NCBI GenBank assembly: GCA_000934665.2
Contig: JYFJ02002779.1
Span: 1-51,004 of the forward strand
DNA from: Catajapyx aquilonaris
Taxonomy: Eukaryota
DNA length: 51,004 bases
Direction: 5' to 3'
The translations under genes were made by a program, and so were the position numbers. Shown here in pieces: positions 1,477 to 50,062 of this stretch; positions within the stretch are counted from its first letter, which is position 1; every line of letters begins with the position of its first letter. Under the pieces are notes generated by a model. The model saw nothing but the letters and a program-made list of their open reading frames with translations, searched no databases and was not told the origin of the DNA.

Positions 1477-1615
1477 CCTCTACTTTGAGCACCAGCAATG
1501 CACAGTCTCAGCACAAGCGCCTGCAACAAATAATAATATTTCCGTATTTTTGTGACAGGCCCGTGTAAGACATCGATCTTACCACAAATACATAGTATAA
1601 AACTGATTCTCCCAT
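1477..1615 (-). CDS. Peritrophin/CBM14 family copy 0: signal-peptide exons 1-2 only
   Basis: Exon1 1615-1583 MGESVLYYVFV|gtaag; exon2 1520-1477 ALVLRLCIAGAQSR(G)|gtaagt. Closely similar to 10210-10074. Exons 3-4 not found in 1-1476, so they are outside the window or lost. Confidence 0.7.
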
Positions 1616-1649
1616 TTTCAAAGCTTTCCACAAAGTGAGACCTCAATAT

Positions 1650-1710
1650 GAGACTGGATGCGCAAAAGCAGCACTATAAATACAGTGTCGCCATAGTCGA
1701 TAAGATATCA
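1650..1710 (-). promoter_or_regulatory. Putative core promoter of copy 0 (TATA-like box, Inr-like motif, GATA sites)
   Basis: Minus-strand TATTTATA (~1682-1675), CCAGTC about 20-25 nt downstream, and cgataagatatc at 1698-1709. A homologous block occurs at 10250-10300. Confidence 0.45.
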
Positions 1711-1921
1711 ATAATGATCATTAGGCCGGGTTTCATCATTGAGGTCCCTTGGTAAGACTTACGGGATAAAGACAGTAATCACTTTTGCAATCTTTCCGCT
1801 TTTGATTTAGAGACCTGAAGGGCGGAATGATCAAAAACACACTTGAGTGATTTCGAAATACACAATTGTTTGAATTTTGAGTATTGCGTGCGTAGACCTT
1901 TATGGGGTAAATTATTCTCAA

Positions 1922-2137
1922 CTAGGGCATCCGTAGCCAACAATTGGCAAAACGTACAATGAGGAAGACAATGGGAATCCAACTTTCCCCCTGGCCTGAT
2001 GATTTAGTGGAGTCGCCAGGAGGTGGCAGCACTCACCAAGGCCCCGCCTCCGTCTCCGCCCTACCCACCGGTGCGTTCCAGACAGAGAGCATGACAGAGA
2101 GTGAAAAAATTGGGCGATTATTATAGGGGGAACTAGG
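1922..2137 (-). mobile_element. Mini non-autonomous Helitron (~216 bp), same family as 4099-6464
   Basis: Minus-strand 5' end cctagttccccctataataatcgcc resembles tctattccccctataataatagcc (4099). 3' end gccaattgttggc-tacggatgccCTAG|t resembles gccaaattttggc-tacgggtccgCTAG|t (6464). Also shares attcccattgtc..cctcatt and the ggtggcagcactc motif. Confidence 0.8.
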
Positions 2138-2389
2138 TCTTCATTTGGGTCCCAAATGGCGAGTGTATTGGTTGACATATTTATTTGACCTATTCCTCTC
2201 CCCTTGCTTATACCCACAGAGCGTAATAACTATAACCGCTATACATATGTGTAGCCTATATATTTTTCGTTTTCTCCAGGAAGCTGTAAATTTACTAAAA
2301 TTTGCTGATATAATCCTTTAAAATCACTAGTGAGGATGGGGTTTTCCTACTGGACTGTCCACCTCTCTCTCTTACCCGGCTCTTACCTT

Positions 2390-2390
<1 letters not shown>

Positions 2391-2451
<61 letters not shown>
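2391..2451. repeat. (TTTA)n microsatellite
   Basis: Direct reading, about 15 units. Confidence 0.95.
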
Positions 2452-2457
<6 letters not shown>

Positions 2458-2864: not shown

Positions 2865-4273
2865 GGGCAATTCCACGTGAACGTGATCACCTTTTGCACG
2901 AAAAAATTGGCCCGTCGATTAAGAGATTATATGTTTAGGTCCAGGTCATGTTAAAACCTTTCCCACAAGGATTTGGTCCGCTGATGCGTGGTTGCCTATC
3001 TACAGGCGCTAATTGCACTTGGATCACAGTTAGAGTCGCCCCTTATTACATTTACATGACAACGTAAATGCATGATGTAATACATGTTTCATGTGTGAAA
3101 TTGTCTCCTCTTTCCGACAGAAATAGTCACTTTCCGATAGCTGTGCAAATTCATGTCAAAATGCGACATTTTTGCAAACAAATGACATTTTCAAAAAAGA
3201 GCCAAAGTCAAATGTCATCACATTGATACATTAATATCAAAATACACCTCACAGTGTCCTCTATCAGTGGTATAAACGGAATTTTGGAATAAGAAATGGT
3301 TACGGAGCTATAGGTATACTGACGTGGAGCGCTGCGCTAGTGGGCACGCCCGCAGAATGAAAAGGAGCGGCCCACCTAGGTCCGTCTTCATGTCTCAGGT
3401 AGTGTACGCTTGTCCTTTGTGTTTAATTCACTTAATCATATATTTAATGTAGTTATAGTTTTAATATATCTAGAAATATAGTTCCAAATAAAGGTCCGCT
3501 ACTGGGCAATTCCACGTGAACGTGATCACCTTTTGCACGAAAATATTTAACCATCGATAAGTGTCAAAGTGTGAGGAGATATGTTTAGGTCCAGGTTAGA
3601 ACCTTTCGCATAAGGATTTGGTCCGCTGACGCGTGGTTGCCTCTCTACAGGCGTAAATTGTACTTGGATCACATTTACACGACAATGTAAATGCTTGATG
3701 TGATACAAGTTTCATATGTGAAGTTGTCTCCTCTTTTCGATAAAAATGCTAACTTCCTGACAGATGTGCAGATTCATGGCAAAAAGTGAGAATTTTGCAA
3801 ACAAATGAAATTTTCGAAACGAGAGCCAAAGTTAAATGCCATCAGTCATCACATTGATATCAAAAAAAAAAAAAATCATAGTGTCCTCTATCAGCCATAC
3901 AAACGGAATTTTGGCATACGCAAGGGTTACGGAGCTATAATCACTGACGTGGAGGGGTGCAGGAGTGCAATATATTCCATTATAGTGAAAGCAAGGGGCC
4001 CGTATGGAGCCGCAAGAAATATCGTACAGGTCTCAACAGTGAACATTCATTTGGACTGTGACTAGGAACGAATAGAAGACTGGACATAAAAATAAAAATC
4101 TATTCCCCCTATAATAATAGCCTTGTCTTAAACACGCCACCATCTGGAACGCCACCACGGCCTGAAGAAATTATTGCCGTGACCCAAAGGTGGCAGCACT
4201 CCCTTGGCAGCCAAGCCAAGCCAGCCAAGGGAGTGCTGCCACCTGTGGGTCACGGCAATAATTCATCTGGCCG

Positions 4274-4691: not shown

Positions 4692-4958
4692 AATAATTCA
4701 TCTGGCCGCCTTTTCCCCTTCCCGCCAAAAGTCCTAACTGCCACCTATTTCCTTTCCCGCCAATACAGGCCCCGGGTGAGTGCTGCCACCTTCTCATCAG
4801 GCCGGGGGTAGGGGGCGGCGGGTTGTGGGGTGGGTCAGTGGCCCACACACTCACTTCTCACTGCGCAGTGGAGAGTATGGTCGCTTTATTTCTGTCTGTG
4901 GTCAGTACCTTACGTCCTCACAACCTGCTCAGTGCCTCATATCCTCACAACCCGCACA

Positions 4959-6317
4959 ATGGACGAGGAGGAGGAGGATCCCATTGCTAGAAAGCGTCGG
5001 ATGGCTAAGGCACGCAAGGCTAGATGGCTAGCAAAGCAAAGTCAGGAGTCCCTGGACAGAATTCGTCAGGCAGACGCTGCAGCTCATCGCTTAGCACGCC
5101 ATCCTCTAACCCAATCCATTCCCGACGAAGCTATTCATTTTCTGGAGGCCCGAGTAGTTCCACACTTCTGCGGACCGTTGATTGTCATTTGCCACTTCTG
5201 TAAGTCCCGCAACTTTCTTACTGAACTTCCTTCTGATGGTAAATTCACAACTTGCTGCCGCAAAGGAAAAGTCCGATTAGAGACACCTCGAGATGATCAC
5301 GGGAATCTCCTGCCTTATCCTTTTTTCCTGCTTGACTTGATGTCCAATCCTGACAATCCTGATTATAGGAACTTCCGTGACAACATTCGCTCATACAATA
5401 GTGCTGTGTCGTTTGCGTCCATGGGAGCCAAAGTGGTTGATTTCAGTGGTGCCGGACCTTACGTCTTCAAAGTCCATGGTCAGATTTTCCACCGCACGAG
5501 TCACGTTCAACCAGTTCATGGCTTAGCTCCTCAGTATGCTCAACTCTACGTCATCGACAGTTCACAAGCTACGGAAATGCGAGTTCATCATCCCGCCAAT
5601 GAACAATGCCTCTCACGTGTTCTGGATCAGATCGACCGCTTCTTCAGGCTCCATAATCGACTCTCTGACACGTATCGCATGCTTCGGGAAGTTGAAGCTC
5701 AGGCAATTCTGCAAGCCAACGTGGCAGGTCTAGATCTTCCTGTGGTAAACCTGGTCTTCCGACGAGACCGTCATTCCGAGCAGCGCCACTATAACGATCC
5801 GACAGCCAATGAAATCGCAATGGTCTTTGTCAACAGCAATGGCGAACCTCCTTTCGAACGTGATATTCAGGTCTATCCCTTGAATCCGGTTGATCCGGAC
5901 CATGCAGCCGAAATAGTGTCGGAATGCAATCGCGGTCATGTCGTTTTCTTGCCCCGAATTACCTTAGCTCCCAGTGACATCAATATGCCTTTTGTTCTCA
6001 AACGCCGCCAGTTTCCTATCATTCCAGCTTATGCCATGACGATCAACAAGTCGCAGGGCCAGACCTTTGAGCACGTGGGCATTTACCTGGATGAACCTGT
6101 CTTCTCACATATGTGGCACTGTATGTGGCTGTATGTGGCACTGTCCCGGTCTCGCAACCCAAGTCAGGTCAAAGTATTCACTACTCAACTGCTCAACAAG
6201 GAACATTGCTCTCCAACAACAGAGTCTTTACACAGAATGTTGTATATCGCGAGGTTTTATGAAAAAGACTTTTCTCATGTCCGACTCAAGAAGTATAGCC
6301 TACAGTATGTCCACTGA
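4959..6317 (+). pseudogene. Helitron RepHel remnant: N-terminal Zn-finger region fused in frame to the PIF1 helicase C-terminus
   Basis: N-terminal RepHel motifs CHFC..CCRKGKV, IRSYNSAVSFAS, FKVHGQIFHR, AQLYVID, YNDPT. C-terminal PIF1 motifs LPRI..RRQFP..AYAMTINKSQGQT..VFSH..LYVALSR. The HUH Rep domain and Walker A/B are absent. Confidence 0.88.
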
Positions 6318-8249
6318 TTCAATGCCACTAAATTTTTCAACCCAGTCTTACGACCAGATATACGCTATTTCTTAGTTGTCACTCCGAGAGGCCTCTCATC
6401 CCATTTTTTCATTCCCATTGTCCTCATTGCAGGTTTTGCCAAATTTTGGCTACGGGTCCGCTAGTTGTAAATAATTATAGCATATTTTAACACACACTTT
6501 ACACTGGTGAAAATTGAAACTTGGTTGAACATGACAAGGGCATTTTCATTTATTCTTACTATTCTATGGTAAAATTTTTTGGAACTATATTTTTAAGTGA
6601 ATTAAACACAAAAGACAAGCGTACATTACCTGAGACATGAAGACGGACCTAGGTGGGCCGCTCATTTTCATTCAGCGGCGTGGCCACTAGCGCAGCGCTC
6701 CACGTTAGTACCTATAGCTCCGTAACCATTTCGTATTCCAAAATTCCGTTTATACCACTGATAGAGGACACTGTGAGGTGTATTTTGATATCAATGTGAT
6801 GACATTTGACTTGGGCTCTTTTTTGAAAATGTCATTTGTTTTCAAAAATGTCGCATTTTGACATGAATTTGCACAGCTATCGGAAAGCGACTATTTTTGT
6901 CGGAAAGAGGAGACAATTTCACACATGAAACATGTATTACATCATGCATTTACGTTGTCATGTAAATGTAATAGGGGGGCGCCTCTAACTGTGATCCCAG
7001 TGCAATTAGCGCCTTAGATAGGCAACCACCCATCAGCGGACCAAATACTTGTGGGAAAGGTCTTAACATGACCTGGACCTAAACATATCTCACACTCATC
7101 GACGGGCAAATTTTTTCGTGCAAAAGGTGATCACGTTCACGTGGAATTGCCCAAGTGTGGTTATGAGAAGTGATAATAACGTTCATTATTTTGCAGTTAA
7201 AATTTAGAGATAGGCTTAGAGTATTTTCAATCCGGCGCGGCGGATCGAAAGGGCCCACTGTATAGACTTACTCAGCATAAAAACAGCAATATTAGAACTG
7301 ACAATGGAAAATATTGGAACCAATACAATGGCATTATAATTTTTCTACATCCATATGTCGCTCAATATACTGTAAGCATCTTCAAAACCTTTGCAGACTT
7401 TTTCTTCAATGCTGTAAGAAAATCAATGTCACAGGTGAGGCAATAAAGGAATTCAAAATGTAGTCAAGAGTGTACTACACTGCGATTTTGATAAGACGTG
7501 ATTTGTCCAATAATTAATATACGGTAAGGACTGAGAAATTCCTCGCTGACTGTGTGTGTCACAGAATTATACGTAGTATATCTGGATGTATTTGTATGCG
7601 GGTGGTACAGATCATAATGTTAAAGTTTCGCTATAAGTGCATATGAAATGACAATAAAATAACATAACGAATAACTGATTAGAAACGTCTGAGTAGCCCA
7701 TTTTGACCAAAAAGGTCACGGTTATAATCGTCGCACTTTCTCACGTACTAATCCAATCATAACAATAAGAGTATCTGTTACACCGTACATCGCACTTGAA
7801 AATTCCGTATATTTCGCTTTATAAATAGACCCAAATGATAACAAACCTCAAAATTTCTTTTACGTCGCATTGATGGTGTAAAACTGTATTGTTGTCGTTG
7901 TTGTTGTTGTTGTTGAACAGGTTTGATTCAGTACTAAACAGTCAGTTATATTCACTTTATTAGCCATACAATTTGACAAAAACATTGCCATAAATAGCTT
8001 TTATCCACAAGGGACACAAAAATATGCGTACATGAAAAGTAGAGAACTACACGTTTTGTATTGAGGCTTGTGTGGTTGGACACTGTCCCTTGCAACATGT
8101 TGGTCCTCCGCAGAATATGTGACCAGGAAGGCACGTTTTAATTTCCTTGACGTAATGTCCTCCAACGGGAACTCACGCGATGTTCTTGTTGCTACATGGT
8201 GCGATTGGAAAGTAGTAGGGTGCTTTACAGACGAATGGTGTGGTGGAAA

Positions 8250-10210
8250 TTATGGGTTATGGACTTGTGGAATAGTCGTTTCATCAGCAGCAGTCGAGTC
8301 AGTGATAGTTGGGATGGTAAATGGCTCTGTACTCGGCGTAGAATATGTAGACGTACTGAACCCACTGGAACACATTGGAACATTGCTCGGGTCATCACAT
8401 TTTCCATTTGCATCATCGAACACCAGGCCGTTGGGACACGTAGCGACTTCGGGTATGCTGCCCTTATATTTGCACACAAAATATTTTGAGCAGTCGTCTA
8501 CGTTTCTTACTGTGACAACACCGTCACCGCACATGTTTTTACAAGCGGCTACATTTTCCATTATTTCGCACATCATGCCAACAACTGAGCATCAAAAGCA
8601 TAACCATCAGGACATTTGCTTACACTGATCAACTCTTTCGTGTCCGAACAGGTATACCCAATTGTTGGACATATATTTGCGCCTGGATACACATTCCAAG
8701 CAGAGGGTTTAAAGCAGTGAACTCCAGATTCAGCCAATGGTGTCAGGCATGTGTCAGCATCAAGACCACTTAAATCGTCGGGTCCAGCAACACTTACGCA
8801 CTTTCCACCAGCATTAGAACTGTCCTCTTTGAAATATCCACTTTTGCAACTTTTCATGACTGGTGTAAGAGCGTCTTTATAATATATCGACACCTGACAT
8901 GTGTAATACAGCATGCAATCTCTAGGGTACGCTTTCTTTATATTTGAAGCAGGTGATCCATCACATAATCCAGTTGCTGGTGTAGGCTTGCAGGAGGCTT
9001 CATCGGGTAAGTCTTCATCACATATCTTCGTAGCTGGATTAAATGCTTTATCGTTGTTACAGGTTTTGGGATGATCAATCAGACTGGAATCGCATTCGTG
9101 GTACATTTTACAGTCGTATGGATCGGGAAATCTACCCTCTTCGCCACATTGATATGGAACGCAGTTCGGTACATCAAATCTGCATCTTGCTTCTGGAGCA
9201 GTTGAATTGTCGCAGAACTTATTAGGTGAGCATGAACTATTCATCCAAGTGTCAGTAGCTGGGTTACATATTTTCACCTTACTGCAATCAATACACACTA
9301 TTTGTTCTGTATCAGGATCGCAACTTTCATCTGTCAGTCCAGAAATCACTCTGAGATACACGTTCGGATCAGGGTCTGGGCTACACGGCACCTAAAATAT
9401 GGGAATAAAGATCATAAATAACATTAGTCAATAGGGTACCTGTAGTAGGCTACTGTTTGTGAAAAATTTCTCATCATAGTTTGTTGTAGGCGTACAGTAC
9501 CAAAGTCTATATATGAACGTGTGCCTTTCCGCACTGTAACATATAGACAGGCTATCACTGATTCATATTTCAGTGTGTTGATTAATCTCAGCGTCATCAA
9601 GACGTTACAACAAAACGAAAGTTTATTTCATGAGCATACACTAAAAATTAATACAGGCTGCCCCAAACATTATTTCAAGGTTACTAAATTAGCAACAGTT
9701 CACAAAAGCTATGTACCTTCGGATCTTCTGGGTAACACAAATTCAATGTTGGATTAAAAACTTCTCCGTCAAGCATGTGCGTATCACAATCTCTGCTTTT
9801 CCCATGACTTGCACGCACTTGTAGAAATGGCGACAGTCGTCTGGATGCGGGTATAAAGTTCCCAATTCACATTTATCTCCGCCTTCCTGCCAGATCATTC
9901 CAATCCTGTTCAAATAAACATTTTCAATTAGAAATGTTTTTGAAATGTACATAAATGTTTGCAGATTAGAAACGTTTGAGGCAAATAGGCTGTTATGATT
10001 GACACTCGAACGTTTACAGCAGTCCAGTGCCAATATAAAATAGAGAAAAAACAACACTTATTAAATGACTTACTCACTACTATAAGCCCTGGCAATGAAC
10101 AAGCTCAGCACAAACGCCTGGAACAAAGTAAGATTTCAGTATTTTGTGACAGCGTTATGGAAATACATCTATCTTACCACAAATGCATGGTATAAAACTG
10201 ACTCCCCCAT
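8250..10210 (-). pseudogene. Peritrophin-like multi-CBM14 gene copy 1 (frameshifted: pseudogene or assembly errors)
   Basis: Exons 10210-10178, 10117-10074, 9905-9717, 9391-8250. 1-nt deletion in exon 3 at ~9771 (TGC TT GAC GGA, versus C-L-E-G in paralogs) and at ~8585. Has CBM14 motifs (PHPDDCRHFYKC, FPDPYDCKMYHEC, CPNGLVFDDANGKCD) and a Thr/Ser tail. Confidence 0.8.
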
Positions 10211-11429
10211 TTTGAATCAAAACTTTCCACGAAGAGATTCCTCAATATGAAGCTGGATGTGCGAAAGGAGTACTATAAGTAGTGTAGATAAGATATCAAT
10301 TATCATCATGAGGAGAGGTTTCGACATTGAGAATTACATGATCCTAGGATAACAGTGGTAGGAAATGAAGCTTAATCACTGTGGCAATCTTTCCCCTTAT
10401 GTTTCGAAGATCTGAAATGCAAAATTGCAAATCAATCAATGGCACATTTGAGTTGTTTATAAATACGACGTACAGTAGTGATGCAACAGTATGCATCATC
10501 AGTTCATCAGGATGTTTTGGTAAAATGGCTGATAAAGATATAGTAATGAGAAGTGACAAGAGCCTTCACTTTACTCTTGGAATTCCCAATTATGACACTG
10601 AGGTATTTTTTAAGAAAACAAGATTGGCAAATCACGTCCGAGTTATTAGAATACTTTTTCTTATTCTTTCAAGTATGAAACTTGTGAGTAATTTTTTCCC
10701 AAAGAATGTAGACCTACCATCGACGAAGTAAGTCAAGTTTAATCGTTCTAATTTTACAAATTGTTACCAAAGATTACAGTAGAACTCATATTACTTTTAC
10801 GTACAGTTTACTGAGAGTTAACCCGGAAAACCGGAAGTTGACCGTGACACGTATTTTCGCGCCTAATCTGAATATGAAACCCGTTTGTCGCTATTTGTTG
10901 CGGTTTCGGCCCTGATACATGACTTATTGTACTTACCGCAGCTGAAAACGACGTCGATGACACTTCACGAAACGACGAAAAAAGTCCCACAATAATTATC
11001 TTCTTCTAACCTCCAAGCTTGGATATACAGTGTTCCTTCGAGTGCTGCATTGGCAATTTATAATTATGTAACAATAATATATATTATTCTTATTATTCTA
11101 CTGATACAACCAAGTAGCCTTACACATGTAGAAAAAGAGTCGGAAGATAAATTGGTGCAGAACATGGGAAGTTGTTTCTTCTCAATACATGTGCTGTTTA
11201 AAAAGAGACCAATAATTATGGAGAACGGTCATATCAATAATTCTGTGTGGTATTTCCTATTGCAATGCAAGCTTATTTTCATCAAATAAGCTTCTCTTTA
11301 TTTCCGTAGCTTTAATGGTCATAATGTTAACCCCTTTGACACTCCAGTTTTGCGAAAGAGATTGTATCATAACAAATATGGGGGAACGCAATGGCAAACA
11401 TATCTAGGCTCAAATTATAGCTGATCAAA

Positions 11430-13246
11430 TTATGGGATGGTTGCTTTTTTGATCGGTGTCTGTGCTGGTGTAAGTGACGTATTCGTTGAGTTGGTGGTTT
11501 TGCTGGGAAAGATGGTGAAAGTTGGTCTGTTGGTTGTAGACAACTCCGTGGGAGTCGTGTATCCATTTATACAACGTGGAACGTTCATTACGTCATCGCA
11601 TTCCTCTATGGCATCATTGAACACCAAGCCATCGGGGCATGTATGGACTTCAGGCACGCTAATATTAGAGTGGCACACAAAATATTTCGAGCAATTATCC
11701 ACGTTCCTCGATAGGTTTCCTTTAATGTAGCTGCAATATTTTTGGCAGGACGGAACATCTTCAATATTTTGGCACACATCCGAGATGTTTTCGGCATTGA
11801 AAGCGTAACCATCATCGCAAGGAAAGACATACGACACCTCTAATGAGGCGGAGCAAGCATATCCTACTGTTGGGCATACATTTTTGTCTGGATAGACTTG
11901 CCAACCTTCTTCAAAACAGCGCCAACCAGAATCTGCCAATTGAATTTTGCAAGCATCGTCCGGCGGTGTTTGTGTCATGTTTAGGTCCACACATGATCCG
12001 TTATTTCTAGCACTTGTAGGAATAAAAAACTGACCAGTGCCGCAGCTTCTCATGGCTGGCAAAATCATTTCTGGGTACTTATCGGAAAAGTCGCACGAAC
12101 CATATTGCAAACAATCACCAGATATATCAAGTTTGCTGTCCAGTGATGGACAGTTTGTGGAAAAAATGGGCGCTTCACATTCTTTTGGATTAGCAGGCAT
12201 CGGCCTATCACACGTCTGAGTTCCAGGGTTGTACGCTTTGCCATTGTCACATCCTGTGAGAAAATCGTGCAGATCATTGTCACATATGTGGTACACTGTA
12301 CAGTCGTTTGGATCTGGAAATATACCCGCCTCGCCACACTGGAAGGGTACGCAGCTCGGAACATCTTCTGTACATTGCTGTGGAGTCGTGAAATTGTTGC
12401 AGAATTTATCACCTGGACAAGAACCGTAATACCAAATGTCAGTTACGGGGCTGCAGAATGTATAAATGGTGCAATTGAGGCACAGAGATTGTAGTCCTAG
12501 AGAAGTGTTGCACTCTACTTCCTTCTTGTTAGAGATGACTTTGAAGTACCTGCTTGGGTTTGCGTCAGGCTGACATCGCTCCTACAAATAGTGCATGAAG
12601 GGTAAGAATGATTGTAATTGCAACTATCTATTATCAGGTGTACGTAGCCTAATATGCAATACAGGCCTATCACCGAGTTATTAAATATATATAATTATTA
12701 GTGATCCATGGTCTTTTTCGATAGCAAATACAGGGTACAGTATAAGCTAGAATGTGCAACAAAGACCTACCATTGGATCCTCAGGATGACATGTGTTCAG
12801 CCTGGGATCAAAAATATCTCCTCCGAAGCATGTGCGTAGCTCAAGTTCTGGTTTTCCCATTCTGTCTGCGCACTTGTAGAATTGGTGACAGTCATCTGGA
12901 TGAGGGTACACCTTTCCCAGTTCACATCCATCAGCAGTTTCCTCCCACTTGTCGTGCCGTATGCTGCAGAGTGACATTTTCAGTTAACGAACTACGTAGG
13001 CCCCTACGTCGAAAATATTATTGTCGAAATTGTCGAAAAGTTCGACAAAATTATTCCGGGCAGTATAAATTGTAACCGAATAAAGAGGAATAAATATTTT
13101 TAACTTACTCTTCACTATTAACACAAGAAACCGACATGGCCACCAGTACCTACAATAGAAAAAGCTCCACTATTGCTTGGCCAAAATATGAGAAAAAAAT
13201 GTTTCATTACCAGCATAATAACAATGTCAAAAACTGTCTCTCCCAT
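11430..13246 (-). CDS. Secreted peritrophin-like multi-CBM14 protein copy 2 (~473 aa, intact)
   Basis: Exons 13246-13211, 13149-13109, 12963-12771, 12581-11430, all GT-AG, phases 0/2/0, open frame. Signal peptide MGETVFDIVIMLVLVAMSVSCVNS, CBM14 repeats and a Thr-rich tail. Confidence 0.9.
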
Positions 13247-25302: not shown

Positions 25303-25354
<52 letters not shown>

Positions 25355-35721: not shown

Positions 35722-38700
35722 TCAGTCCTCTTCATCCCTGTTCTGGTGTCTGACTGACTGCAGATGACGCTGCTCTGCGTAGTAGCTCTCTTCCTGATAG
35801 CCACTGTCCCTGGAGGTATAGGTGGTGAGCATGTACACAACAGCCTCGTACGTGCTCATCATGATGGCGGTGTTGGGTATCTGCCTGATGAGCTGGGTGG
35901 TCAGCCCACGGTACAGCCCCCTGTAGCCTTCTTCCCTCAACACGGTGGACAAGGTCTGCCAGAAACCCTTGTACTTGTTCCCCTCTTCTCTGAGGCGGGT
36001 ACGAGCAACCTCTGCACACATAAAGGGCAATAATTAGGCTATGAGCAGATATGTAATGTGTTTTGTTTAATGAGATGCATCTCATAATCATTTCTTTGAT
36101 ACTAAAGGTTAAGGGCGCCAGGCCGCACCTCCAGCAAGACGCCCGCATTACCGGTACAAAGAGAACGCTGAACCTACAACTCAGCCAAACTTCACTCGTG
36201 AGTTGGAAAAATCGCGTAGGTATCCGGCGCCCTTAACACATGTAACCCATGCTAAATCACACATATTTGAGTACGAAGCCTTCAGTTTTCTCCAAGTCAC
36301 TTAAAAAATGACAGCTCATTGGGGCTTCCTACTTATCAGTCACTACTTCCTATTAGAAGTGACAAATAAAAACTTTCGCTGTGAAATTTCTCTATGGAGG
36401 GCAGTACGACATTTCAAAAACACCAATCATGTCTGCATGTCAACAAAGTAAGCAATAGTGATGGAATAGGCGACTAGAAAGAGTGCAAAACTGGTAGTGA
36501 AAGTGCAAAAATGTTTTATGTTGTTGATATTGCCTAAAGAAATACTTGCGTCCTGCTGTTTAGCAAGTGTGTGTGACACAAAATTTGCAAAACAGGTTTA
36601 ACTGCCTTAAAGACTGGGACATCAAGGAGCAACTGCCGCACTCGCTTTCCAGCAGTCACATGGCAGTCAATCAAAGGCTGACGTGATACGTGCAAATAAA
36701 AATTTGCAAATGCCCAATAATACAGAAAATGCATGAACAATGCAGTTTCATTTCTCAGTAGTAGTATGCTTTTAATTCTGTAAATGTATTATTGACACTA
36801 TTGTCGTCATTGTGAAGTCATAGGCACCTGACAGGGTCCTGCAAATGGGCTTCATCCTCACTCTGGACCATGGATATTTGACCTGCTCTGATCATAGGGC
36901 AAACTTTACTGTGCTAGTTGGTAGGAAGCCAACTTCTAACTGGTTGTATCAGTACTATAATTTCCTCAAACATAATTATGTATACGCCTGTGACATCACA
37001 AGTTTTCCAGGCAACTCATTGGACACCCTCATGATGGTTCATCATCCCATTTTTGGCCTCCCCTGTACTTCAGTTCCTTTCATCAGTGATAAAGAATGAC
37101 AACAAAATAGCTTGTGGTGACATTTAATTGCTATGAATCAGAGTCACCACAAACCCCTCAAGATAGCCAATATCTCCTTGGTCATACACACAGGGTGCTG
37201 CTCTGGCCAAGTTGATGATCCAGAGCTGGATCAGGAGAAGAGTTCATGATTACTCACACCTGGGTGATGTAAACAGAGTGAGTGTATGAAGTGATAAAAG
37301 GAGACCCAAACCATGTGCTGACTCTTAGGGAAGTTTGAATGCAAAGCAAGACTTACTCATTAAGCTATGTTTGTACATCCCTTCCCCTCTTTGGAGAATC
37401 AACTTGGACAGAGAAACACCTCAGTATACCATACAGTATAATGGAATTCATGTGCTTAATTTATCTGACAGGTTATAGTACCATTCAGTATTTAAACGAA
37501 GCTTGCTCTTATTTAAAAAAGCCAGTGGATAGCATGCAAGTTCATGCTGACCAAGTGTCTCTGTTTAGAAAAATTATACACAAGGGAGTGATCAAGTCAT
37601 ACTGACCATGAGGGTAGGCAAGTGTGGAGGCCACTGTCTTGGAGACTGCCCCGGCAAACATGAATTCAAAGAAGTCCCTGGACGACTTGTGATCCCCATT
37701 TCCATTGGTCCTCCTCGTCCTGTACTCCTGCAGCTTCGCTTTTATGGCCTCGTATATCACAAAGTGGACCACCGTCTCCGAGATGCCGTAGTATGATGCA
37801 GTGATTCCCTTGTAGAAACCAACAACACCCTGCAAATAGTAATACATTGCATTAGTAATCGATTTCATCAGCAGAACTGGAATTTTACTTTTCATTCTCT
37901 GCTGAAAGTCTTTACCCCTTGCTGGTAGATCCTCTTGACACACTGAAGGGTGGACAGTTTCTTCCCGGCATGTTCCTGGTCAAGCTGAAGCCTGGTCTTC
38001 ACAAACCAGATGGGGTTTGTCAGGGTGCACGCCACAAAGCCTGAGGAGATAAGAGAGCACATTAGGGTCCATATGCCACAGACTAAATATCGCCCAAGAA
38101 CAAAAACAGGAGTCGCATTGAGGGCAAGATAAATAAAACTATTTATTTTTGGACCACAAGAGGAAGCAGAGAATATCAAAATATATTCTTTCAACAGGCT
38201 TCCCTTTTCTCTGTGCATTACAACTCTATTCATCCTGTGTTCTGGATGTAATAAATAAGTCATAAGCCACTAGTTCTTTACTGAAATAAGATACTGACAT
38301 ATTTCTTCAGCAGTCATTTACAAAGAATTGTGAATGAGAGACAACTCATCTAATGACAAGATTTGCTCCACTGAAGATAGTGTTGGGGCAAGGTTTAGAG
38401 TGAAGTGGTTGTTAGTAATAGTTTCCAAGTGTTGATAACATCTGCTAGACCTTCTGTGGTGCAAACACTCTGAATATGTAACAGTTCGTAGAAAAATAAC
38501 ACCGCTCATTTTTACAGCACGTCAAACACCGAAATAATGCAGCAATCCTCCCGAAACTTTAAAAAAAAAATTTTCAGTATCACCTGCCTGGTGTTTTGCT
38601 CACTCTCTGAAAAATGACATGCCGCACACCTGAATTAGGACGTAAATTTACGGCTCTCTAAATCCACACACTTGCAGCATCAGTGTAACATCTGCCCTGA

Positions 38701-41700
38701 ATGATGCAACAATTTCTGAAACTCCGCTTGACATCCTATTTATTGCGCACCATGATTCAGTTCAACCCCATGAATCCCAAATGGCCCAGAATCACGCTCC
38801 AACTGCATGATAGAATCCGCACATCTCATTCTCATCCCATACATAGTTAATTGCGACCCCACCAGTACCGTCAGGTCTAATTAGTTCCACCAGTCCGCGA
38901 CCTTGCCACGATTATTCAATTGCCTCCTAACTTGAAAATCCGGACCACACCAACTCTTGTTATTTACCGTACCCAGATCTACTTTTATACCACCCCAGCT
39001 CAAGTACCTGGCCCCCAGCCAGGGTGTGCCCTATCGGTGCATACGTGACAACCTATTCTTCACGTGCATTCACAAGAAGTGCTCAGGCCAAGTCTCGCCA
39101 ATTTATCCCTCTTTGAAAATAGTTGGTGCAAGAAATAAATAGGATATTAGCCTCCAAGCAATGGGACAGCAACCCCCTTTGCTTTAAAAAGGTTGATTCA
39201 TCGTTTAAAAACAGACTGTAAATACTTAGGGGTAATTGCCCCTATTTACGCGTTAAACAGGTTTCTCGCACGTTCTTTCAAGACGGCAACTGGTGGCAAA
39301 AGGTGTGTCTCAGCAGGCCGAAAATAAATGCACCTGACGTCAATTATTATGGAAAAAAATCCAATATTACGCAACACAGCCATTAGATCGTTGACTTCCT
39401 GCCACGTTTCTGTCAGAGCTTACTTATTATTACAGCCAAAACTGTCCACCCAATCACATTCCTTAATATGTCACCGCCAAATCTGGAGACCGAAAAAAAA
39501 AATCGCACATCAGTGACCTAGCACAACGCAGATTTTCGCGAACAACGCAACTCCTGTCACTCTTCCAACTCGTACCAAACACGGCATATAAATTGAGCCG
39601 AATTGTTCAACCCAGCAACTATATTCGCCAGTTAAATAGGTGCAATTGCGCACACATGTTTTCTGCGTGACTTACATTCGCCCGCCCCAACTTCCTGATG
39701 CGAAATACGTAATGGATGTCATGGGCACCAAAATGACCTCCTTGGCCAACTGATTAGATCCAGTTCTCTCCCGACTTTCTTTGAAAATTCGCACTGCACT
39801 ATATTTAATCGACCATACCCGCGACCTATGGATTACTGGACCCTATACCGCTGTTGTTTGTTGCACATTTCTTCAACAACAATTCCGCAATGCAAATTCA
39901 GTAAATCTTCGATGCGTTACATAACCTCCCAACTATATATGCAGTGTCACTGCAAAATATTAGCCATCGGCATAAATTACGTCTTATTACCGGGATCAAG
40001 GTGACTTTTTCACGTACCGATGCTATTATTTTTAAACCCAAGTTGCATCGGAGTCCACGTTGTCCGCCGATCCGAAAAACCCTGGGCATCGTCCCAATAA
40101 GTTCGGCGGCATTTCCAAACACATAAACACACAAAGTTCCTTTAACCACCCGCATACCGGCCCCGGTCAATCACACAACAACACAGGATGTAAACATTTA
40201 ATGCGATCTAAAAAATCCAATGTACGGGTACAACAACTGTAGCGGAAATTACACATACCGCAATTTCACTGACCCCGCACGTTTTTTATTATTATTAATA
40301 TACACCTCTGATGCAGATAAAGTACGTGCGTATACAGGTCATCGGCCTGGTCCTGTGCCTATAAATATTTTTCCTTGACACATGCCGAACATGAACTTCA
40401 CAATCTTTTTGTATCATCTGCGTCACTTCAAACTCATCTCAAAATATAACGCGGCGGCCGATATCCGCATATAACACGCACAAAAAAAAAAATGTGTTTT
40501 TTATACACGGCTGGAAAATGACCCACAAGTGATGACATCGCACCTTTAATAACCTCCTGTCGGATCTCTAACGAGTTCTTAATGATGTTGACACTTTCAT
40601 GGCTGGCTTGAGACGGATGCGAAATATTCGTCCTTGAACTTTCGCAAAACCAGAATAAATTTTCCTTTCCCATTGGCTATTCCTAGAAATGTGAATCGAT
40701 TCCTCGTCGCCATTATATCAGGGCGAGATGTATCCATGTAATTAAGGAAAATATTCGCAACATGCAATGGACCACGCAAATGTCATCAGCCTGGCAAAAA
40801 TAGCTCCAGACCTGAACCTTCCCCAAGTGCGGCAATGTGCAAATGCGATTACAGCATCTCTCATGACACAGTATTTATCCAAGAACCGGTGGTAAACTAA
40901 TAAGACTTCACAGGTTTCGCTGTGCCAGAGGCTCAAAGTGTGCAATCTACTCTTTTTTTTCTGCAAACGACCTTGTCCTGCTAAAGGTCTGTCAAATGAC
41001 TGGCCTTGGGGTGCGAATAATAATTGCAGGGCTGCTTAAAATAAACTTCTAGTCTGACCACGTTTTAGGCACAAAAAGTTGCAAGGAGGTCCTGGGTTGA
41101 CGCTTGGCCTTGACGATTAGGATGGGTGCAAAAATTGCAAGTTTGAAGATGTTCTTTGCATTGATGCCGTAACGTATGTAATCCAATCGGGGATGGGCGA
41201 TAACGTATGATAAAACACCCGCTTTCCACAGTCATGCTACTTGTAGGCGCCAGAAATAAACGTACGGCTGATTACACATATATGTTGCGCCATGAAGCAT
41301 GACCACTGACAAAGAGTACGGATCTGAATGATTGTCATGATGCGACTGACCTGCCGATGCGGCTGAGAAGATGTGGACGATGGGACTGTCGGGCGTTAGC
41401 ACCGAGTTGAAGAAGGCCTTGGCTTTGGAGTAGGAACTGAAGTAGATGGCCCTCGATGGGGCCACTCCGATCAGGTTGGGACCCAGGCCCTTGAAAAGTG
41501 CAGTGGGACCTTCCTTTTCGATGATGTACCTGCATGTAACAATAGAGAGCATGAACTTAGACGATGATCGTAGACGTGGTAACACAATGTTGCTGGACAT
41601 GTGCTTTTTGTCAAAAAAACATGGGGGGATATGGGGAGGGGAAATGCAATCAAAGTTGCCCAAGGTCAATGGAATGGAGCCAATGGCTAGTGGCCAAAAT

Positions 41701-43228
41701 GCTGGCGGAAATCAGCAGCTTTTACTTTCCCCTGATTTTTACTTATGCAGCAAAACTGGATTGGTGCAGAGAACACGTGTACAAACATCCATAAATCATT
41801 TTGTCACGAAATCCCCCCAAAATAGATTTTAAGTATGCCCTGCATGAAGTTGATTTATGATCAGTACATCATGCACGTACACTTGAAACTCATGTGTACG
41901 TTCAATCATGAAGTGTTCAAAGTACATGTCACCCAAAAACACTCAGAACAAGTGACATAACCTAGGCCTCGCAGCCTTGTGCTTCATTCAAAATGCGTTT
42001 ACCATTGATAAAATGTGCAGTCACTGCTTCAGAAGGCTGCATTACACATCAAACAAAGGTTGTTAACATGCCAATCAAGGCCACACACAACAATGTTCAT
42101 AACAATCTCACAATGCGGTTCGCATATATTGAGAACGTGTAACAATTTTTTTCTAGAATAACCCCAAAGTGTCCTCAGGCAGCCTTGGGATCATCATCTA
42201 CACATTTATCTTGCCCCCGACCAGACTTCATAGGTCTCCGGGTGTCAAACACAGTAAATCCAGTTAGAACCAGATTTTCTGAATCGAATCAAACATTCCT
42301 GCTCTTTGCCACTTGACCCAAAGCACCCTTCCTTTGACTCCCAGCATTTTTATTTTTCTTTTGGAAACTGAACACGTCTTGGCTCGTACTGGATTCCAAG
42401 CTGACCCTCGGGTCAAGTTGCCATCAAGCTCATAAAAAGTTGCAATAATTGCCCTTCCCAATGCTCCACATATAAGACCTGATTAAAACTGATGCCCACC
42501 TCAAGCACTTCATGACTCCCATGTTGCTTGGACGACCACCAGGCATAGGACCCGAATCTGCAATTGTGAAAAGATGCGCCGCCTTGCAGGAACTGCACGT
42601 GCTGAACCTCAACCTCTGCTCGCGTCTCGGGCTGCCATTGGACACACCTGAGTTCCCCTCGGACAGTAGCGTCTTCCCATTAGTCTTCAGATGGTTCGTG
42701 AAGTGCGCATAAGACGACTGGAGCCTGGTCTTGACCACCTCTAACGGGCAGGTTGCAATTGCGCCTGCGGTTCCGCCGACCCTTTAAGAACAAAATATTA
42801 ATTAGTGACCCCGACTTGGTTTGATTAGGAAGGAGCCGAAGTAACTTTCTGGCTTGCTGTACAGCAAGGGGTTAGTCACTTGATACTAGTGTACGATGGA
42901 CTTGACTTCAGCGAGACTTTAACCGGACTTCCGTCTCATTGTACAACGGACTTCACCGACTTCAACTAGACTTCAGTCTTGGTGTGCAACGGGCTTTATG
43001 GACATCACGTAGACTTCAGTCTCAGTATACAATGGACTTCACGGCCTTCAGTCGGTGCCCTCTTCTGTCTCAGTGTACAACGGAATTCACCCGGACCCAC
43101 ATAAGTGACAAACCCCTCGCTGCACATGCCAATTGCACCTTAACGACATGCTCATATGCAGCCTAATAAAGTGTGTTCTCAACTCACCCTCCGGCGACCA
43201 GGTGTATGAAGGTATCCTTCTGCGACAT
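35722..43228 (-). CDS. SLC25A36: Mitochondrial pyrimidine nucleotide carrier SLC25A36/SLC25A33 (Rim2 homolog), ~379 aa
   Basis: Exons 43228-43188, 42781-42500, 41529-41351, 38040-37916, 37829-37607, 36011-35722. N-terminus [14 protein letters not shown]; carrier signatures [31 protein letters not shown]; also [17 protein letters not shown] and [10 protein letters not shown]. Confidence 0.95.
36113..36232. mobile_element. Short TTAA-flanked MITE (120 bp)
   Basis: TTAA|GGGCGCC...GGCGCCC|TTAA, GC-rich island in the last intron of SLC25A36. Confidence 0.55.
42885..43097. repeat. Degenerate ~42-bp tandem repeat in SLC25A36 intron 1
   Basis: About 5 units of gtctcagtgtacaacggacttcac...gacttca. 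Confidence 0.75.
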
Positions 43229-46280: not shown

Positions 46281-47761
46281 ATGGAGAGTGTACTTTTTCT
46301 ATTCATGTCCGTATTGTTGGTCAGTACTTGTGTTCTTGCCCTTTAGTTGTACAGCGAGTAACAATTGGTTCGATTTTTACAGGTAGACGCCCACATTGTG
46401 CAAAATCCAAGCCATCCAGGACCATTCTCAAGGTATTGGCACAATTTTTAAGAACATGCCATCCAGAATGCAGTTAACAATACTTGTTTCAGCTCTCTCT
46501 GCAAGAATGTGGGGATCAATCGACACCCGACTAACTGCCACAAATTCGTCGTTTGCACACTAACCGGCAACAAGACGTTCGATGTGAAAGAAGGCAGCTG
46601 TCCGGAAGGAATTTACTCCGAGACTCTCCGCTCTTGTGTCCCTGAAAGTGACGTAAGTACGCATATTCTTCATTGTATAGATAACAAAACTGACTTATGA
46701 TACATCCAAACATCCAGAAACTGCAGTGCAAAGAGTGGCCTCTTGCTCTGTCCGTGAAAGCACCGCCGCAGACCACGGGAAAGGACCAGTGTGCCGAAAT
46801 TGGTATGACCTGTTCCAGCGACTGCAAGAGCATCCGGATGTGTTACCGAGGCACAGACAACCATCTGAAGGCGTACAACGTGTCCTGCGGAAACTTCTTC
46901 TGCAAAGATGGCTCCTGCAGCTACGAGTATCCGCCTCTCCTGTGCCAGACGACTGGAACCAAGAGGGACTCGAAGACGTCGTACTTCCAATGTGGGATCG
47001 AGGGAACCTTCCCGGACTACCGAGACTGCCGGATGTACCACATATGCAACAAGACACTGCACAACGTAGAGATGACCTGCCCTCCGGAGAAGATGTACAA
47101 CCCAAGATCCGAGAAGTGCGACTTGGACTACGATGAGGAAGAGTGTTTGCCCAGCATCCTCCAGAAACCATGCAGCGGAGAAAACAGCTGCGGGTTCCGT
47201 CCTTACAACCGGTTTTGCAGCCTGTTCTACTACTGCCAGCCTAGCAGGAACAACCCGTACAACATTGTACCGGTGCTGTACAAGTGCCCGAAAGGAGAAG
47301 GATTTGACCCCACCAGAGGGATATGCGACATAATTCCTCTTGGTCAAGAGTGCGCCGAGTTGTCCGTTTGTCAGAAGAAGGGTTTCGTCCAGAGACAGTC
47401 GCTGAAATGCACCAGTCGGTACGAGTTCTGCTATCCGGATATCGACAGGGCAAAGGTCTTCACTTCGCTGGAGTTGCAGTGCAACAATGGGCATATCTAC
47501 GACTCGGAGAATGAGCGATGCGCGCACATCAACAGTGTGAAGCACTGCAGGCCCAACTGCAAGGACAAGGCGCCTGGGTTCCACCGGATTCTGGGAGACT
47601 GCTCTGCGTACTATGTGTGTGTGAACAAGAGGGATCAGCCCATCTCTTATTTGTGTCCGAAGGGATTGGTGTTTAATGTGGAGATAGAGCAGTGTGATTT
47701 TGTAGAAAATGTGCCGTACTGCGTCAGGCCGCCTCACAGCTCGTCCATCACTCTCCATTAA
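46281..47761 (+). CDS. Secreted peritrophin-like multi-CBM14 protein (~430 aa, intact, divergent member)
   Basis: Exons 46281-46319, 46383-46432, 46493-46652, 46718-47761, phases 0/2/0. Signal peptide MESVLFLFMSVLLVDA. Motifs HPTNCHKFVVC, FPDYRDCRMYHIC, CPKGLVFNVEIEQCD. Confidence 0.9.
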
Positions 47762-48153
47762 TCTTGATGTAATGTACTGTAACAATACACGCTTAAAAAT
47801 AATTTTCAACAACTGCATTCATAATAATATTATTACCTCAACAATACATTTCCAGTGTGGCAAGAGGGGTACATACATAAGGGAAAATTGCTGTTCTCTC
47901 GACATCTATATAACCAAGACAATATCGCAATTAATTTTATGATCCACCATCAAGTTGTGAGCAATAGCCGCTCATCAGTAATACTTGGGTGTAGCCATGT
48001 AGGCCTATTGCAAGACAGATCGTTTGGGTTTGGGTGGGAATGCAAGTTATCTAAATTGTGGGGGCTTAAATTGATATCTTGGGCAATGTCGCACTTTTTT
48101 AACGCGTTGTAAACGTTCTTATCCTGGAGCTGAAATGCAAAGGGATAGAGTTT

Positions 48154-48161
48154 TATATAAA
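48154..48161 (+). promoter_or_regulatory. TATA box of the last CBM14 gene
   Basis: TATATAAA, 56 nt upstream of ATG 48210. Confidence 0.5.
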
Positions 48162-48209
48162 TGAGTCCCAGACTTGAAAAATTCAAGAGGAGCCGGACTT
48201 TGATTCAAA

Positions 48210-50062
48210 ATGTCCTTCTCATCGTCTCTTGCGATCATGGTAAGAACTCTCATGAATTTCTTGTTATAAAGTCAGTATAGTGGTTGACTACTATTTCTTG
48301 ATGTCTATTTCAGACATGTGTAGCTGTAATTTCAGCTACAACTGGGCAGACAACTACTAAAGGATACAGGTAAATGCGCATATATTTCCTTGCGCATATA
48401 GCCTATACTGTAGGTGATTTGCATGACAACTTTCTCAATGCTGTATTACTTTGTAATTCAGCTATGCATGTCCATATGTCGGCTTGTTTGCACACCCTGA
48501 GGACTGCCACAAGTTTTACTACTGCTCTGAGACTGACGACGAAGACTTGGTAGCAGAAGAAATGCACTGCCCGGAAGGAATGTTTTCAAAAGGAAGAAGG
48601 ACGTGCGTGCAGGAAGGAAAGGTCAGTTTCAGATGTGTGTTCTGAGATAGGTTTATATATAGACATTTCAACCGAACCGTATTAATTGTAATTTTCTTCA
48701 GGTGCAGACGTGCAGTGCCAAGAAGCCCTGATGTTGATGGCTCCTCGATCTCTAACATCCCAGTATGGAAGTGTCTTTTGTTCTGACGATTGCACCAAAG
48801 TATTATATCGTATAATCACCCCTGATGGTGACGTAATTAGTAACACTGAAATCATGTGATACAGCTCATTCAGAATATTGCATATTAGGTAGTTGCAAAT
48901 CTGTAAGAAACCCAAACAAATGCAAAACTGATATGTATGCGTGTGTACCAGACGGCCCCTTCCTCAATTTTCCTGACTCAAAATACTGCGGAGGATACTT
49001 TGTGTGTTCTCCGATGGATACACGACCAGCATATTTTAATTGCACAGATCTTACAGGTGATAATTCGCTCATTTTCAATCCAGATGATTGGGACATGATT
49101 GGGCCTTGCACATTAAATTACACTGATGACAACTGCCGCACTACAAATCTCCCTGAAAACGTTTGCCAGAATGGAGTGTCTGGTCCCCACCCTGTGGAGA
49201 ATTTCTGTGAATATTTTTACTACTGTGAACCGTCGAAAAATCCAGATATCTTTCAAGTGACAATGTATCATTGCGATACGGGTCAAGGGTTTAGTCCCTC
49301 TTCTAAAAAATGCATTCCATTAAGCCAAATTCCAGAATGTTCTTCTGAAAGCCGTAACTGCGTAACTGAAGGATATTTTCAGGAGAAAGAGGATAATTGC
49401 ACCGGAAATTATTACGTTTGCTTATCAGCTCCATCAGGAAACTTGATACAAACTCGGGCAACATGTAAAAATAGCATGATTTTTGATAGTGTTTCAAAAA
49501 AGTGCAAAACATCTGTAAGTTACTGTCCCTCATTGGCCTCATGCACTGGCAAACCCAACGGTTTTTATCCCTCTGGAAGTGAATATTCACGAAAGTACTA
49601 CATATGCATCAAAGGTAAGATGTATAATAATAATAATTAATCAGCAATGAGAAAGCATGCAAGAGGGACGTTCATAAAGTACGTACCATCGCATCGCCTT
49701 GAAGGAAAAGAGAAACTTGCAATTTGAACAGTTTCTCTCTTTTCCTAGTTCAACGCGATGGTACGAACTGTATGAACCGATATGAACGCCCTTCGAATAT
49801 GATCCTGCTACATAAAATTTCGACTTGCGTGAAAATGTCCCCTCGTGTAATGACGAGTTTGTAACAGATGTTCCGATTAATCCTACATTATTTTAAGTAG
49901 GAAAGTATCCTGTACCTGGCCTTTCGAAGTGCAATTTGATTCATTAGCCTACCGTATACTACATTGGCGTAAGTGGACAAATTACAGATAGGTCAGGTTG
50001 TAACCTGTCCAGCTGGTAGAATTTACGATCCTGCGAGATACTTCTGCGTACTTGGTAGATAG
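48210..50062 (+). pseudogene. Peritrophin-like multi-CBM14 pseudogene
   Basis: Exons 48210-48239, 48314-48369 and 48462-48621 are intact. Exon 4 (~48702 onward) has a frameshift near 48845, an open stretch to 49640, an AAT-rich insertion, a MITE, then stop-interrupted CBM14 remnants (YDPAT*NFDLRENVPSC, TCPAGRIYDPARYFC). Confidence 0.8.
49664..49792. mobile_element. Palindromic MITE inserted in a CBM14 domain of the pseudogene
   Basis: agggacgttcata..cgtaccatcgc..ggaaaagagaaact pairs with agtttctctcttttcc..gcgatggtacg..tatgaacgccct. Confidence 0.75.

Follow-up and report, generated by a model that had tools for sequence, protein, structure and literature searches.

The window analysed here is the whole stretch of 51,004 nucleotides (nt) of contig JYFJ02002779.1 from Catajapyx aquilonaris, with a G+C content of ~40 % and a single N at 22349. 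It harbors nine gene units, designated U0 and A to H, which most probably constitute a tandem array shaped by birth-and-death evolution and encode secreted, multivalent chitin-binding proteins of the peritrophin type. Units U0, A, B, C, D and E are located on the minus strand, where U0 to E are arranged head-to-tail with A-to-E start spacings of 2.0-3.1 kb, and units F, G and H are located on the plus strand. The ATGs of E and F, which are arranged head-to-head, lie 768 bp apart (21044-21812), and the stretch between them may act as a shared bidirectional control region.

An initial annotation, made by reading the letters of this DNA, had listed nine units with their start codons and had counted five as intact, three as disrupted and one as partial. 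All nine ATGs were recovered at the reported coordinates and the same tally was obtained, with B, C, E, F and G intact, A, D and H disrupted and U0 partial. The units are given below with their exons in order, the state of their open reading frames (ORFs) and their Pfam CBM_14 scores.

U0: exon 1 1583-1615, exon 2 1477-1520 (unit 1477-1615), minus strand; partial, with ATG, donors and acceptor
A: 10178-10210, 10074-10117, 9717-9905, 8250-9391, minus strand; pseudogene, CBM_14 33.4 and 44.8 bits in two exon-4 ORFs
B: 13211-13246, 13109-13149, 12771-12963, 11430-12581, minus strand; intact ORF of 473 amino acids (aa), phases 0-2-0, CBM_14 60.3 bits
C: 16355-16387, 16252-16292, 15935-16121, 14734-15825, minus strand; intact ORF of 450 aa, CBM_14 51.6 bits
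D: 18374-18409, 18265-18305, 17951-18143, 16738-17840, minus strand; pseudogene, CBM_14 27.4 and 29.1 bits
E: 21012-21044, 20912-20952, 20401-20593, 19043-20128, minus strand; intact ORF of 450 aa, CBM_14 61.1 bits
F: 21812-21844, 21904-21938, 22000-22162, 26055-27050, plus strand; open frame of 408 aa, CBM_14 24.5 bits in exon 3 and 43 bits in exon 4
G: 46281-46319, 46383-46432, 46493-46652, 46718-47761, plus strand; intact ORF of 430 aa, CBM_14 79.2 bits over 4 stretches
H: 48210-48239, 48314-48369, 48462-48621, exon 4 from 48702 or 48716 to ~50062, plus strand; pseudogene, CBM_14 31.9 bits in exon 3

Exon plan of the gene units

The models of the splice junctions draw solely on GT/AG sites, on the reading frame and on conservation between paralogues. 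A phase-0 GT donor was present 30-39 nt after every one of the nine start codons; each exon 2 (35-56 nt) was preceded by a pyrimidine-rich AG and ended with a phase-2 GTAAGT-like donor. Together, exons 1 and 2 encode 22-29 residues with a hydrophobic core (maximal Kyte-Doolittle mean over 10 aa of 2.7-3.7 in all nine units), and these hydrophobic N-termini were taken as predicted signal peptides split over two tiny exons, in agreement with the initial annotation.

Exon 3 measured 160-193 nt (187-193 nt in B to E, 160 nt in G and H). In B, C, D, E, G and H, it was entered in phase 2, left in phase 0 and encoded five cysteines of a first CBM14 domain, the sixth being encoded at the start of exon 4. 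F followed the same exon plan with only three cysteines in exon 3, and exon 3 of A (189 nt) displayed the same boundaries with a 2-nt insertion. The 0-2-0 phases and the first CBM14 divided between exons 3 and 4, both proposed earlier, were thus reproduced by computation. No stop interrupted the spliced reading frame of B, C, E, F or G over the lengths listed above. Exons displayed 65-81 % nucleotide identity between paralogues whereas most introns gave no match, which supports the exon models independently.

Exon 4 of G could also start at an alternative acceptor at 46727. The third intron of F is 3.9 kb long, filled with repeats and holds the N at 22349; the first CBM14 of this unit retained four of six cysteines and its tail is absent. 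The two halves of F are inferred to belong to a single transcript. For U0, which is cut off by the edge of the window, no exon 3 and no CBM14 match were found in positions 1-1476. A tblastn search of the window with the five intact proteins uncovered no further copy beyond the nine loci, and its only additional match (60 nt, 2802-2861 on the plus strand, E = 0.068) was taken as chance.

Protein modules

Read from their cysteines, the encoded proteins displayed the order signal peptide, CBM14-1, an eight-cysteine (8-Cys) module, CBM14-2, module 3 (M3), module 4 (M4), CBM14-5 and tail. This reproduces the layout given in the initial annotation, i.e. a signal peptide, one CBM14, the 8-Cys module, about four CBM14 or CBM14-like repeats and an optional Thr/Pro tail. 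Exon 4 of B encodes 33 cysteines, the spacings of which recur almost unchanged in C, E and F and in similar form in G. The modules of B are distributed as follows.

12771-12963, minus strand: exon 3, first CBM14 with five of six cysteines, the sixth being residue 3 of exon 4; Pfam 35.5 bits
12351-12572, minus strand: 8-Cys module, C-x9-C-x2-C-x5-C-x11-C-x5-C-x8-C-x6-C
12177-12350, minus strand: second CBM14 (CBM14-2), canonical; Pfam 37.2 bits
11949-12176, minus strand: M3, six-Cys CBM14-like, from hhalign, AlphaFold2 (AF2) and Foldseek
11745-11948, minus strand: M4, six-Cys CBM14-like; Pfam 12.4 bits, E = 0.18, below cut-off
11571-11744, minus strand: module 5 (CBM14-5), canonical; Pfam 45.7 bits
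11433-11570, minus strand: tail of 46 aa with a Ser/Thr/Pro (S/T/P) fraction of 0.52

At the gathering cut-off of Pfam CBM_14 (PF01607, 22.1 bits), the domain was found in 10 out of 10 exon-4 ORF pieces (27.4-79.2 bits), in two of three exon-3 ORFs (A reached 18.1 bits) and, in a separate scan, in all four exon-3 translations. This profile search, which had been suggested as a check, together with the gene models supports the earlier reading of secreted multi-CBM14 proteins sharing one exon plan. The six-Cys register C-x11..13-C-x5-C-x10..13-C-x12-C-x8-C and the presence of F, W or Y in the 5-residue loop between the second and third cysteines (C2-C3) of nearly all modules likewise correspond to CBM14/peritrophin-A; an aromatic residue at this position is given as conserved in peritrophin-A domains in reference PMC4013664.

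Modules M3 and M4 were compared to module 5 by hhalign using five-paralogue alignments. The positive control CBM14-2 reached 94.5 %, M4 93.5 % (E = 2.2e-7) and M3 86.6 % (E = 4.5e-6). The AF2 model of M3 (predicted local distance difference test, pLDDT, 73.2) displayed five strands, and its top seven Foldseek matches were chitin-binding-domain (CBD) structures, including Avr4 (6bn0, 4z4a), the CBD of Blo t 12 (2mfk) and EHEP (8in6), with probabilities of 0.41-0.92 and template modelling (TM) scores of 0.47-0.53. We take these structures to be CBM14 members. M3 and M4 were accepted here as diverged CBM14 modules.

Tails were 2-46 residues long with S/T/P fractions of 0.38-0.57, except in tail-less F, and each protein contained 3-11 NxS/T sites. 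M3 of G (47147-47353) displayed seven cysteines vs the usual six, and mature G has an odd total of 39; it may carry a free thiol or form an intermolecular disulfide.

The 8-Cys module spans 54 residues from first to last cysteine and was covered by no Pfam family, neither in the window proteins nor in eight homologues. In a 14-row alignment including insect homologues, seven of its cysteines were invariant and the eighth was present in at least 90 % of rows; a 20-row alignment was alike. The AF2 model was all-beta (pLDDT 72.8 overall, 77-87 in the core) and, among the Foldseek matches listed, nine out of 34 were chitin-binding-domain structures with TM scores of 0.38-0.45, which is a lead only. 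Comparison to CBM14 by hhalign gave 20.9 % with a 5-row profile, and 51.8 % (E = 1.5e-4) with a 20-row profile including insect homologues set against a 25-row CBM14 profile. In this last alignment, the third, fourth, fifth and seventh cysteines of the module fell on Cys2 to Cys5 of CBM14. Such kinship is suggestive, not proof, and we rather favor a CBM14 scaffold with one added cysteine pair as the origin of the module.

Eight-cysteine modules are also encountered in other peritrophin-type proteins, namely the dipteran peritrophin-B (8 Cys) and modified peritrophin-A (6+2 Cys) domains, according to references PMC4013664 and PMC5776124. Identity with peritrophin-B was rejected on the basis of stated length alone, 54 residues vs the 81-88 residues given in PMC5776124. 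Keyword searches of the open-access literature retrieved no description of the whole architecture or of the 8-Cys module, which is not proof of absence.

Evolution of the array, relatives and neighborhood

Disruptions were counted as the frame switches needed between ORFs; indel counts from exon-4 nucleotide alignments (60-69 % identity) were discarded because they contained dozens of spurious indels. A displayed one frame switch in exon 3, with 2 extra nt near 9770, and another in exon 4 near 8575-8590. D displayed two frame switches within ~50 nt of exon 4 (~17400-17450), and in its M4 a Ser replaced a cysteine conserved in the paralogues. Exon 4 of H lacked a clean start: from the acceptor at 48702 the frame meets a stop, and from that at 48716 it is open only to 48857. 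A frame switch was located near 48840, one cysteine of the 8-Cys module was replaced by Arg, and the last CBM14 was interrupted by in-frame stops at 49783 and 49813; decayed CBM14-like remnants extend to ~50062. The H ORF at 48837-49640 still reached 42.6 bits for CBM_14.

The alignment of the five intact copies comprised 44 columns with cysteine in at least one copy, 24 of which were cysteine in all five; pairs of copies shared 25-32 of 33-37 cysteine columns. Only 22 out of 260 ungapped non-cysteine columns were invariant, and pairwise non-cysteine identity was 19-53 %. Conserved cysteines amid strongly diverged residues, as originally described, are thus confirmed.

Ratios of nonsynonymous to synonymous substitutions (dN/dS) were estimated pairwise by the Nei-Gojobori (NG86) and Yang-Nielsen (YN00) methods. 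Among B, C and E, they amounted to 0.29-0.33 (NG86) and 0.37-0.52 (YN00) with dS of 0.7-1.2; in the seven pairs involving F or G, dS was saturated and dN/dS undefined. Values for individual modules of B, C and E were 0.06-0.53, i.e. all below 1. These figures indicate old copies under relaxed purifying selection, and the fast diversification assumed by the initial annotation was not borne out. The 8-Cys module (0.16-0.22) was as low as CBM14-2 and CBM14-5 (0.06-0.30) and below CBM14-1, M3 and M4 (0.23-0.53), which makes it a constrained part of the protein and not a linker.

A 20-row tree was built from the region of the 8-Cys module and CBM14-2. It included seven window rows (A to G). Not entered were H, whose 8-Cys region is frameshifted, U0, which lacks the region, members of the Schistocerca cluster that are almost identical to one another, and domain hits scoring under 40 bits. 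A to E grouped together (support 73/69) and, within them, A paired with C (86/88) and D with E (80/73); F and G formed very long branches. The window rows and one Schistocerca protein (P0102) were placed on one side of a branch with support 63/86. Seven of the 17 inner branches remained open and deep nodes were unresolved. Forcing the seven window rows to be monophyletic cost 0.04 log-likelihood units (approximately unbiased test, p-AU 0.47), so a lineage-specific origin of the whole array is neither shown nor excluded by the tree. The array consists of tandem paralogues of differing age, A to E being the younger group, and contains intact copies together with pseudogenes, which is consistent with birth-and-death evolution, as had been claimed from the outset.

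At their 5' ends, the units paired differently. U0 and A displayed 70 % identity over 519 nt (1337-1819 vs 9932-10416), a stretch that covers the two small introns as well as ~200 nt upstream of the start codon, and are sister copies in this part. C and E paired likewise (16244-16410 vs 20904-21067, 71 %). The disagreement between 5' pairing (U0/A, C/E) and tree pairing (A/C, D/E) hints at recombination or gene conversion. In exon 3 of B, C and E (12771-12963, 15935-16121 and 20401-20593), dS was 0.42-0.66 vs 0.79-3.4 in exon-4 modules, and nucleotide identity was 74-81 % vs 65-70 % in exon 4; the low dS of exon 3 could be due to gene conversion of this exon or to extra constraint.

Relatives were sought in several ways. 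A word-indexed protein search with exon 4 of B retrieved nothing at E<=0.001 among 600 candidates, the family being too diverged for shared 5-mers, and the ESM Atlas yielded generic arthropod CBM14 clusters only (scores 0.85-0.88, lead threshold 0.9). Exhaustive HMMER searching with a five-paralogue profile retrieved 1750 proteins at E<=1e-3, of which 40 reached E<=1e-30. The majority were very long multi-CBM14 proteins scoring by repeat summation; the colinear matches, as far as they bear a source name, were insect proteins, one of them named peritrophin-48-like. Relatives with solved structures were the CBM14 domains of chitinases, squid chitin-binding beak protein 3 and EHEP.

The closest architecture was displayed by Schistocerca LOC126457178 (P0102, XP_049949219.1), which is represented by orthologues of 469-475 aa, labelled 'uncharacterized', in five species of Schistocerca. 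Its order is signal peptide, CBM14, linker, 8-Cys module, CBM14, M3-like module, CBM14, Thr/Pro stretch and CBM14. It shares with the window proteins the module order, the MG... start of the signal peptide, all eight aligned cysteines and the Cys-depleted CBM14-like module. In contrast to them, it displays a linker of ~30 aa between CBM14-1 and the 8-Cys module, an internal Thr/Pro stretch, and two instead of three further modules after module 3. As judged from protein isoforms only, Schistocerca genes would have introns inside the region that is the single exon 4 of the window genes, and their signal peptide would contain, or be closely followed by, an exon boundary. The 16-member Schistocerca protein cluster comprised one LOC per species with at most three isoforms each, a count restricted to that cluster.

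Shorter relatives open directly with the 8-Cys module: Schistocerca LOC126187473 (P0145), Anabrus simplex XP_066998209.1 (P0141) and Bacillus rossius 'peritrophin-48-like' XP_063230448.1 (P0077). They resemble the window proteins by a colinear signal peptide, 8-Cys module, CBM14 and CBM14-like block, and differ by the absence of a CBM14 before the 8-Cys module, by their length (228-335 aa) and by a module 3 devoid of its second cysteine. The block was repeated within proteins of Timema tahoe, Lamprigera yunnana and Abscondita terminalis. Among proteins outside the training set of the hidden Markov model, P0028, P0096 (3 copies), P0116 (2) and P0119 (2) reached 48.8-64 bits.

The window proteins, with all eight cysteines alignable and a canonical CBM14 directly behind them, thus belong to an unnamed insect family of 8-Cys, CBM14 and CBM14-like modules. 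On the evidence of protein sequence, this architecture is common to at least Orthoptera, Phasmatodea and Coleoptera (fireflies), where it is annotated by automatic names only. The system had initially been considered lineage-specific, which does not hold for its architecture given the same module order in LOC126457178 and the 8-Cys and CBM14 block in Anabrus, Bacillus rossius, Timema, Lamprigera and Abscondita. Already described one-to-one orthologues had been named as a finding that would refute the initial reading, and this objection applies only in part: relatives of the same architecture do exist, but they carry only the labels 'uncharacterized', 'hypothetical' or 'peritrophin-48-like'.

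Other features of the window are as follows.

35725-42780, minus strand: Rim2/SLC25A36 mitochondrial pyrimidine-carrier gene, five exons, from tblastn
42499-42780, 41349-41549, 37919-38062, 37608-37841 and 35803-36012, minus strand: tblastn segments of Rim2
4812-6317, plus strand: ORF of 501 codons with PIF1/UvrD-like helicase C-terminal matches (UvrD_C_2, 33 bits)

The Rim2 gene interrupts the CBM14 array, with F on one side and G and H on the other. Its last exon displayed 65-85 % identity to many pancrustacean proteins and more than 85 % to none; a few annelid and mollusc proteins scored alike over the conserved core. Both the Rim2 protein of S. americana and LOC124595237, a homologue of the family in that species (P0215, P0165), were located on one chromosome-scale record of 1,132,376,849 bp, a weak hint that the linkage of the family with Rim2 is old.

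Inverted repeats of 580 bp with 93 % identity to each other (2865-3445 vs 6583-7152) bracket the helicase ORF, and a third copy of this repeat (76 % identity) lies at 3504-3960. The segment 2865-7152, between U0 and A, probably represents a transposable element, e.g. a Helitron-like helicase fragment. Intron 3 of F (22163-26054) contains a ~240-bp repeat in three copies of mixed orientation (22387-22620, 23543-23793 and 25434-25677, 73-77 % identity), and a simple-sequence run (~25970-26010) lies immediately 5' of its exon 4.

Probable function and alternative explanations

The analysis above shows how the genes are built, which domains and homologues they have, under which selection regime they stand and which copies are pseudogenes; secretion, chitin binding, cross-linking, glycosylation and tissue were inferred. 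As peritrophin-type proteins, the products of the array would begin with a signal peptide and continue with six beta modules knotted by disulfides, namely three canonical CBM14, two diverged six-Cys CBM14-like and one 8-Cys. Each CBM14-type module would offer aromatic side chains for stacking on N-acetylglucosamine, and with several modules per chain the protein would be multivalent. A chain of five or six such units could bridge neighboring chitin fibrils, and thereby cross-link and coat an extracellular chitin matrix; the Thr/Pro-rich tail, often present, is probably O-glycosylated. Cross-linking of chitin by multivalent CBM14 proteins is the established peritrophin model. The array itself would have grown by old local duplications (dS ~1 among A to E), purifying selection holding cysteines and module cores while surface residues drift and copies decay to pseudogenes.

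By analogy with characterized families, the peritrophic matrix of the midgut ranked first as the site of action, followed by cuticle or trachea and then by defence. The first rank derives from Bombyx, whose genes with several ChtBD2 domains (peritrophic matrix proteins, PMPs) show expression chiefly in the midgut according to reference PMC7379184; it is a tentative choice that falls slightly short of an even chance. Among known systems, HoCBP76 of Holotrichia (seven domains) is likewise a secreted chain of six-Cys peritrophin-A/CBM14 domains, and its register CX13-17CX5CX9CX12CX7C is close to that of the window proteins. It differs by its experimental chitin binding and midgut localisation, whereas the window proteins are known from genes alone; no 8-Cys module is mentioned in the portion of its account consulted (PMC4013664). 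A comparable gene family expansion is that of peritrophin-1-like in Tetraopes, with lineage-level gain and loss and omega of 0.23-0.38 on duplicated branches, to which the 0.29-0.52 of the window is similar. That expansion concerns a different subfamily, and positive selection is reported on one of its branches (PMC13001012).

Several points weigh against the peritrophin-type reading and its placement in the midgut. In the Pfam scan of B, M3 gave no match and M4 stayed below the cut-off, so that three of the five six-Cys modules pass; since M3, M4 and the 8-Cys module all fail this cut-off, how many chitin-binding sites each protein has is uncertain. None of 373 Foldseek matches of M3 and none of 263 of the 8-Cys model reached E<=0.001. 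Tissue and ligand are predictions from family membership alone, and 'intact' designates an open reading frame only. F, with its degenerate first CBM14 and its 3.9-kb repeat-filled intron, may be decaying or split. Finally, some Bombyx PMP-class genes are expressed outside the midgut according to the same reference (PMC7379184), indicating that domain count alone does not fix the tissue.

This last observation also favors the strongest of the alternatives, according to which the genes encode cuticular, tracheal or other epidermal chitin-matrix proteins, functional analogues of the peritrophin-analogous cuticular proteins (CPAPs), and would organise chitin laminae instead of the gut matrix. The CBM14 building block and the secretion signal are common to both readings, and Bombyx CPAP genes with ChtBD2 show expression in integument and head according to PMC7379184. 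On the other hand, CPAP1 proteins have one ChtBD2 domain and CPAP3 proteins have three, following PMC3504105 and PMC13001012. Five six-Cys modules and one 8-Cys module in each protein fit neither group, the CPAP3/obstructor class requiring exactly three ChtBD2 and the CPAP1 class a single one where at least three domains are above the Pfam cut-off here. CPAP3/obstructor genes generally keep one-to-one orthologues across insects, and many diverged tandem paralogues with pseudogenes look unlike them. An epidermal role is unlikely, although it retains some credit.

Less probable by a clear step are secreted defence or interaction lectins that would bind fungal, parasite or egg chitin, or shield the animal's own chitin, and would be diversified by antagonistic selection. 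Turnover in copy number with pseudogenes, the low non-cysteine identity between copies (19-53 %) and the higher dN/dS of modules 1, 3 and 4 (0.23-0.53) would suit such a role; no module or gene pair reached dN/dS 1, however, dS of 0.7-1.2 denotes old copies rather than rapid turnover, and Pfam scans revealed no immune-type domain. That the array is largely a graveyard of untranscribed relics, with B, C, E, F and G as recent chance survivors, is very improbable: although disruptions affect three of the eight units seen in full and F combines a degenerate first module with a repeat-invaded intron, the persistence of five open frames of 408-473 codons at dS ~1, dN/dS below 0.55 in every module and the shared cysteine columns (25-32 of 33-37 pairwise) are unlike neutral decay.

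Returning to the peritrophin-type reading, a broader proposal can be put forward with more reserve than the placement in the peritrophic matrix. The 8-Cys module might be an undescribed domain of several insect orders, a CBM14 derivative with a fourth disulfide that is always followed by a canonical CBM14 and by a CBM14-like module depleted of cysteines. This trio would define an unnamed, functionally untouched peritrophin-like family in at least Orthoptera, Phasmatodea and Coleoptera, expanded here to nine or more copies beside Rim2, and the strong constraint on the module (dN/dS 0.16-0.22) would suggest that it serves a specific function, e.g. with a distinct glycan or protein partner, and is not mere filler.

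Apart from the 8-Cys module, the finding is an ordinary gene-family cluster. This module, conserved in several insect orders, unnamed in domain libraries and apparently never tested, is the only element of the cluster that might repay further work, and it raises the question of whether it binds chitin or something else. Peritrophin-type proteins determine how porous and how strong the gut chitin barrier and the cuticle are, which makes these proteins relevant to pest control and to the passage of pathogens across the gut, and the locus described here is a well-resolved example of such genes multiplying and decaying in place.

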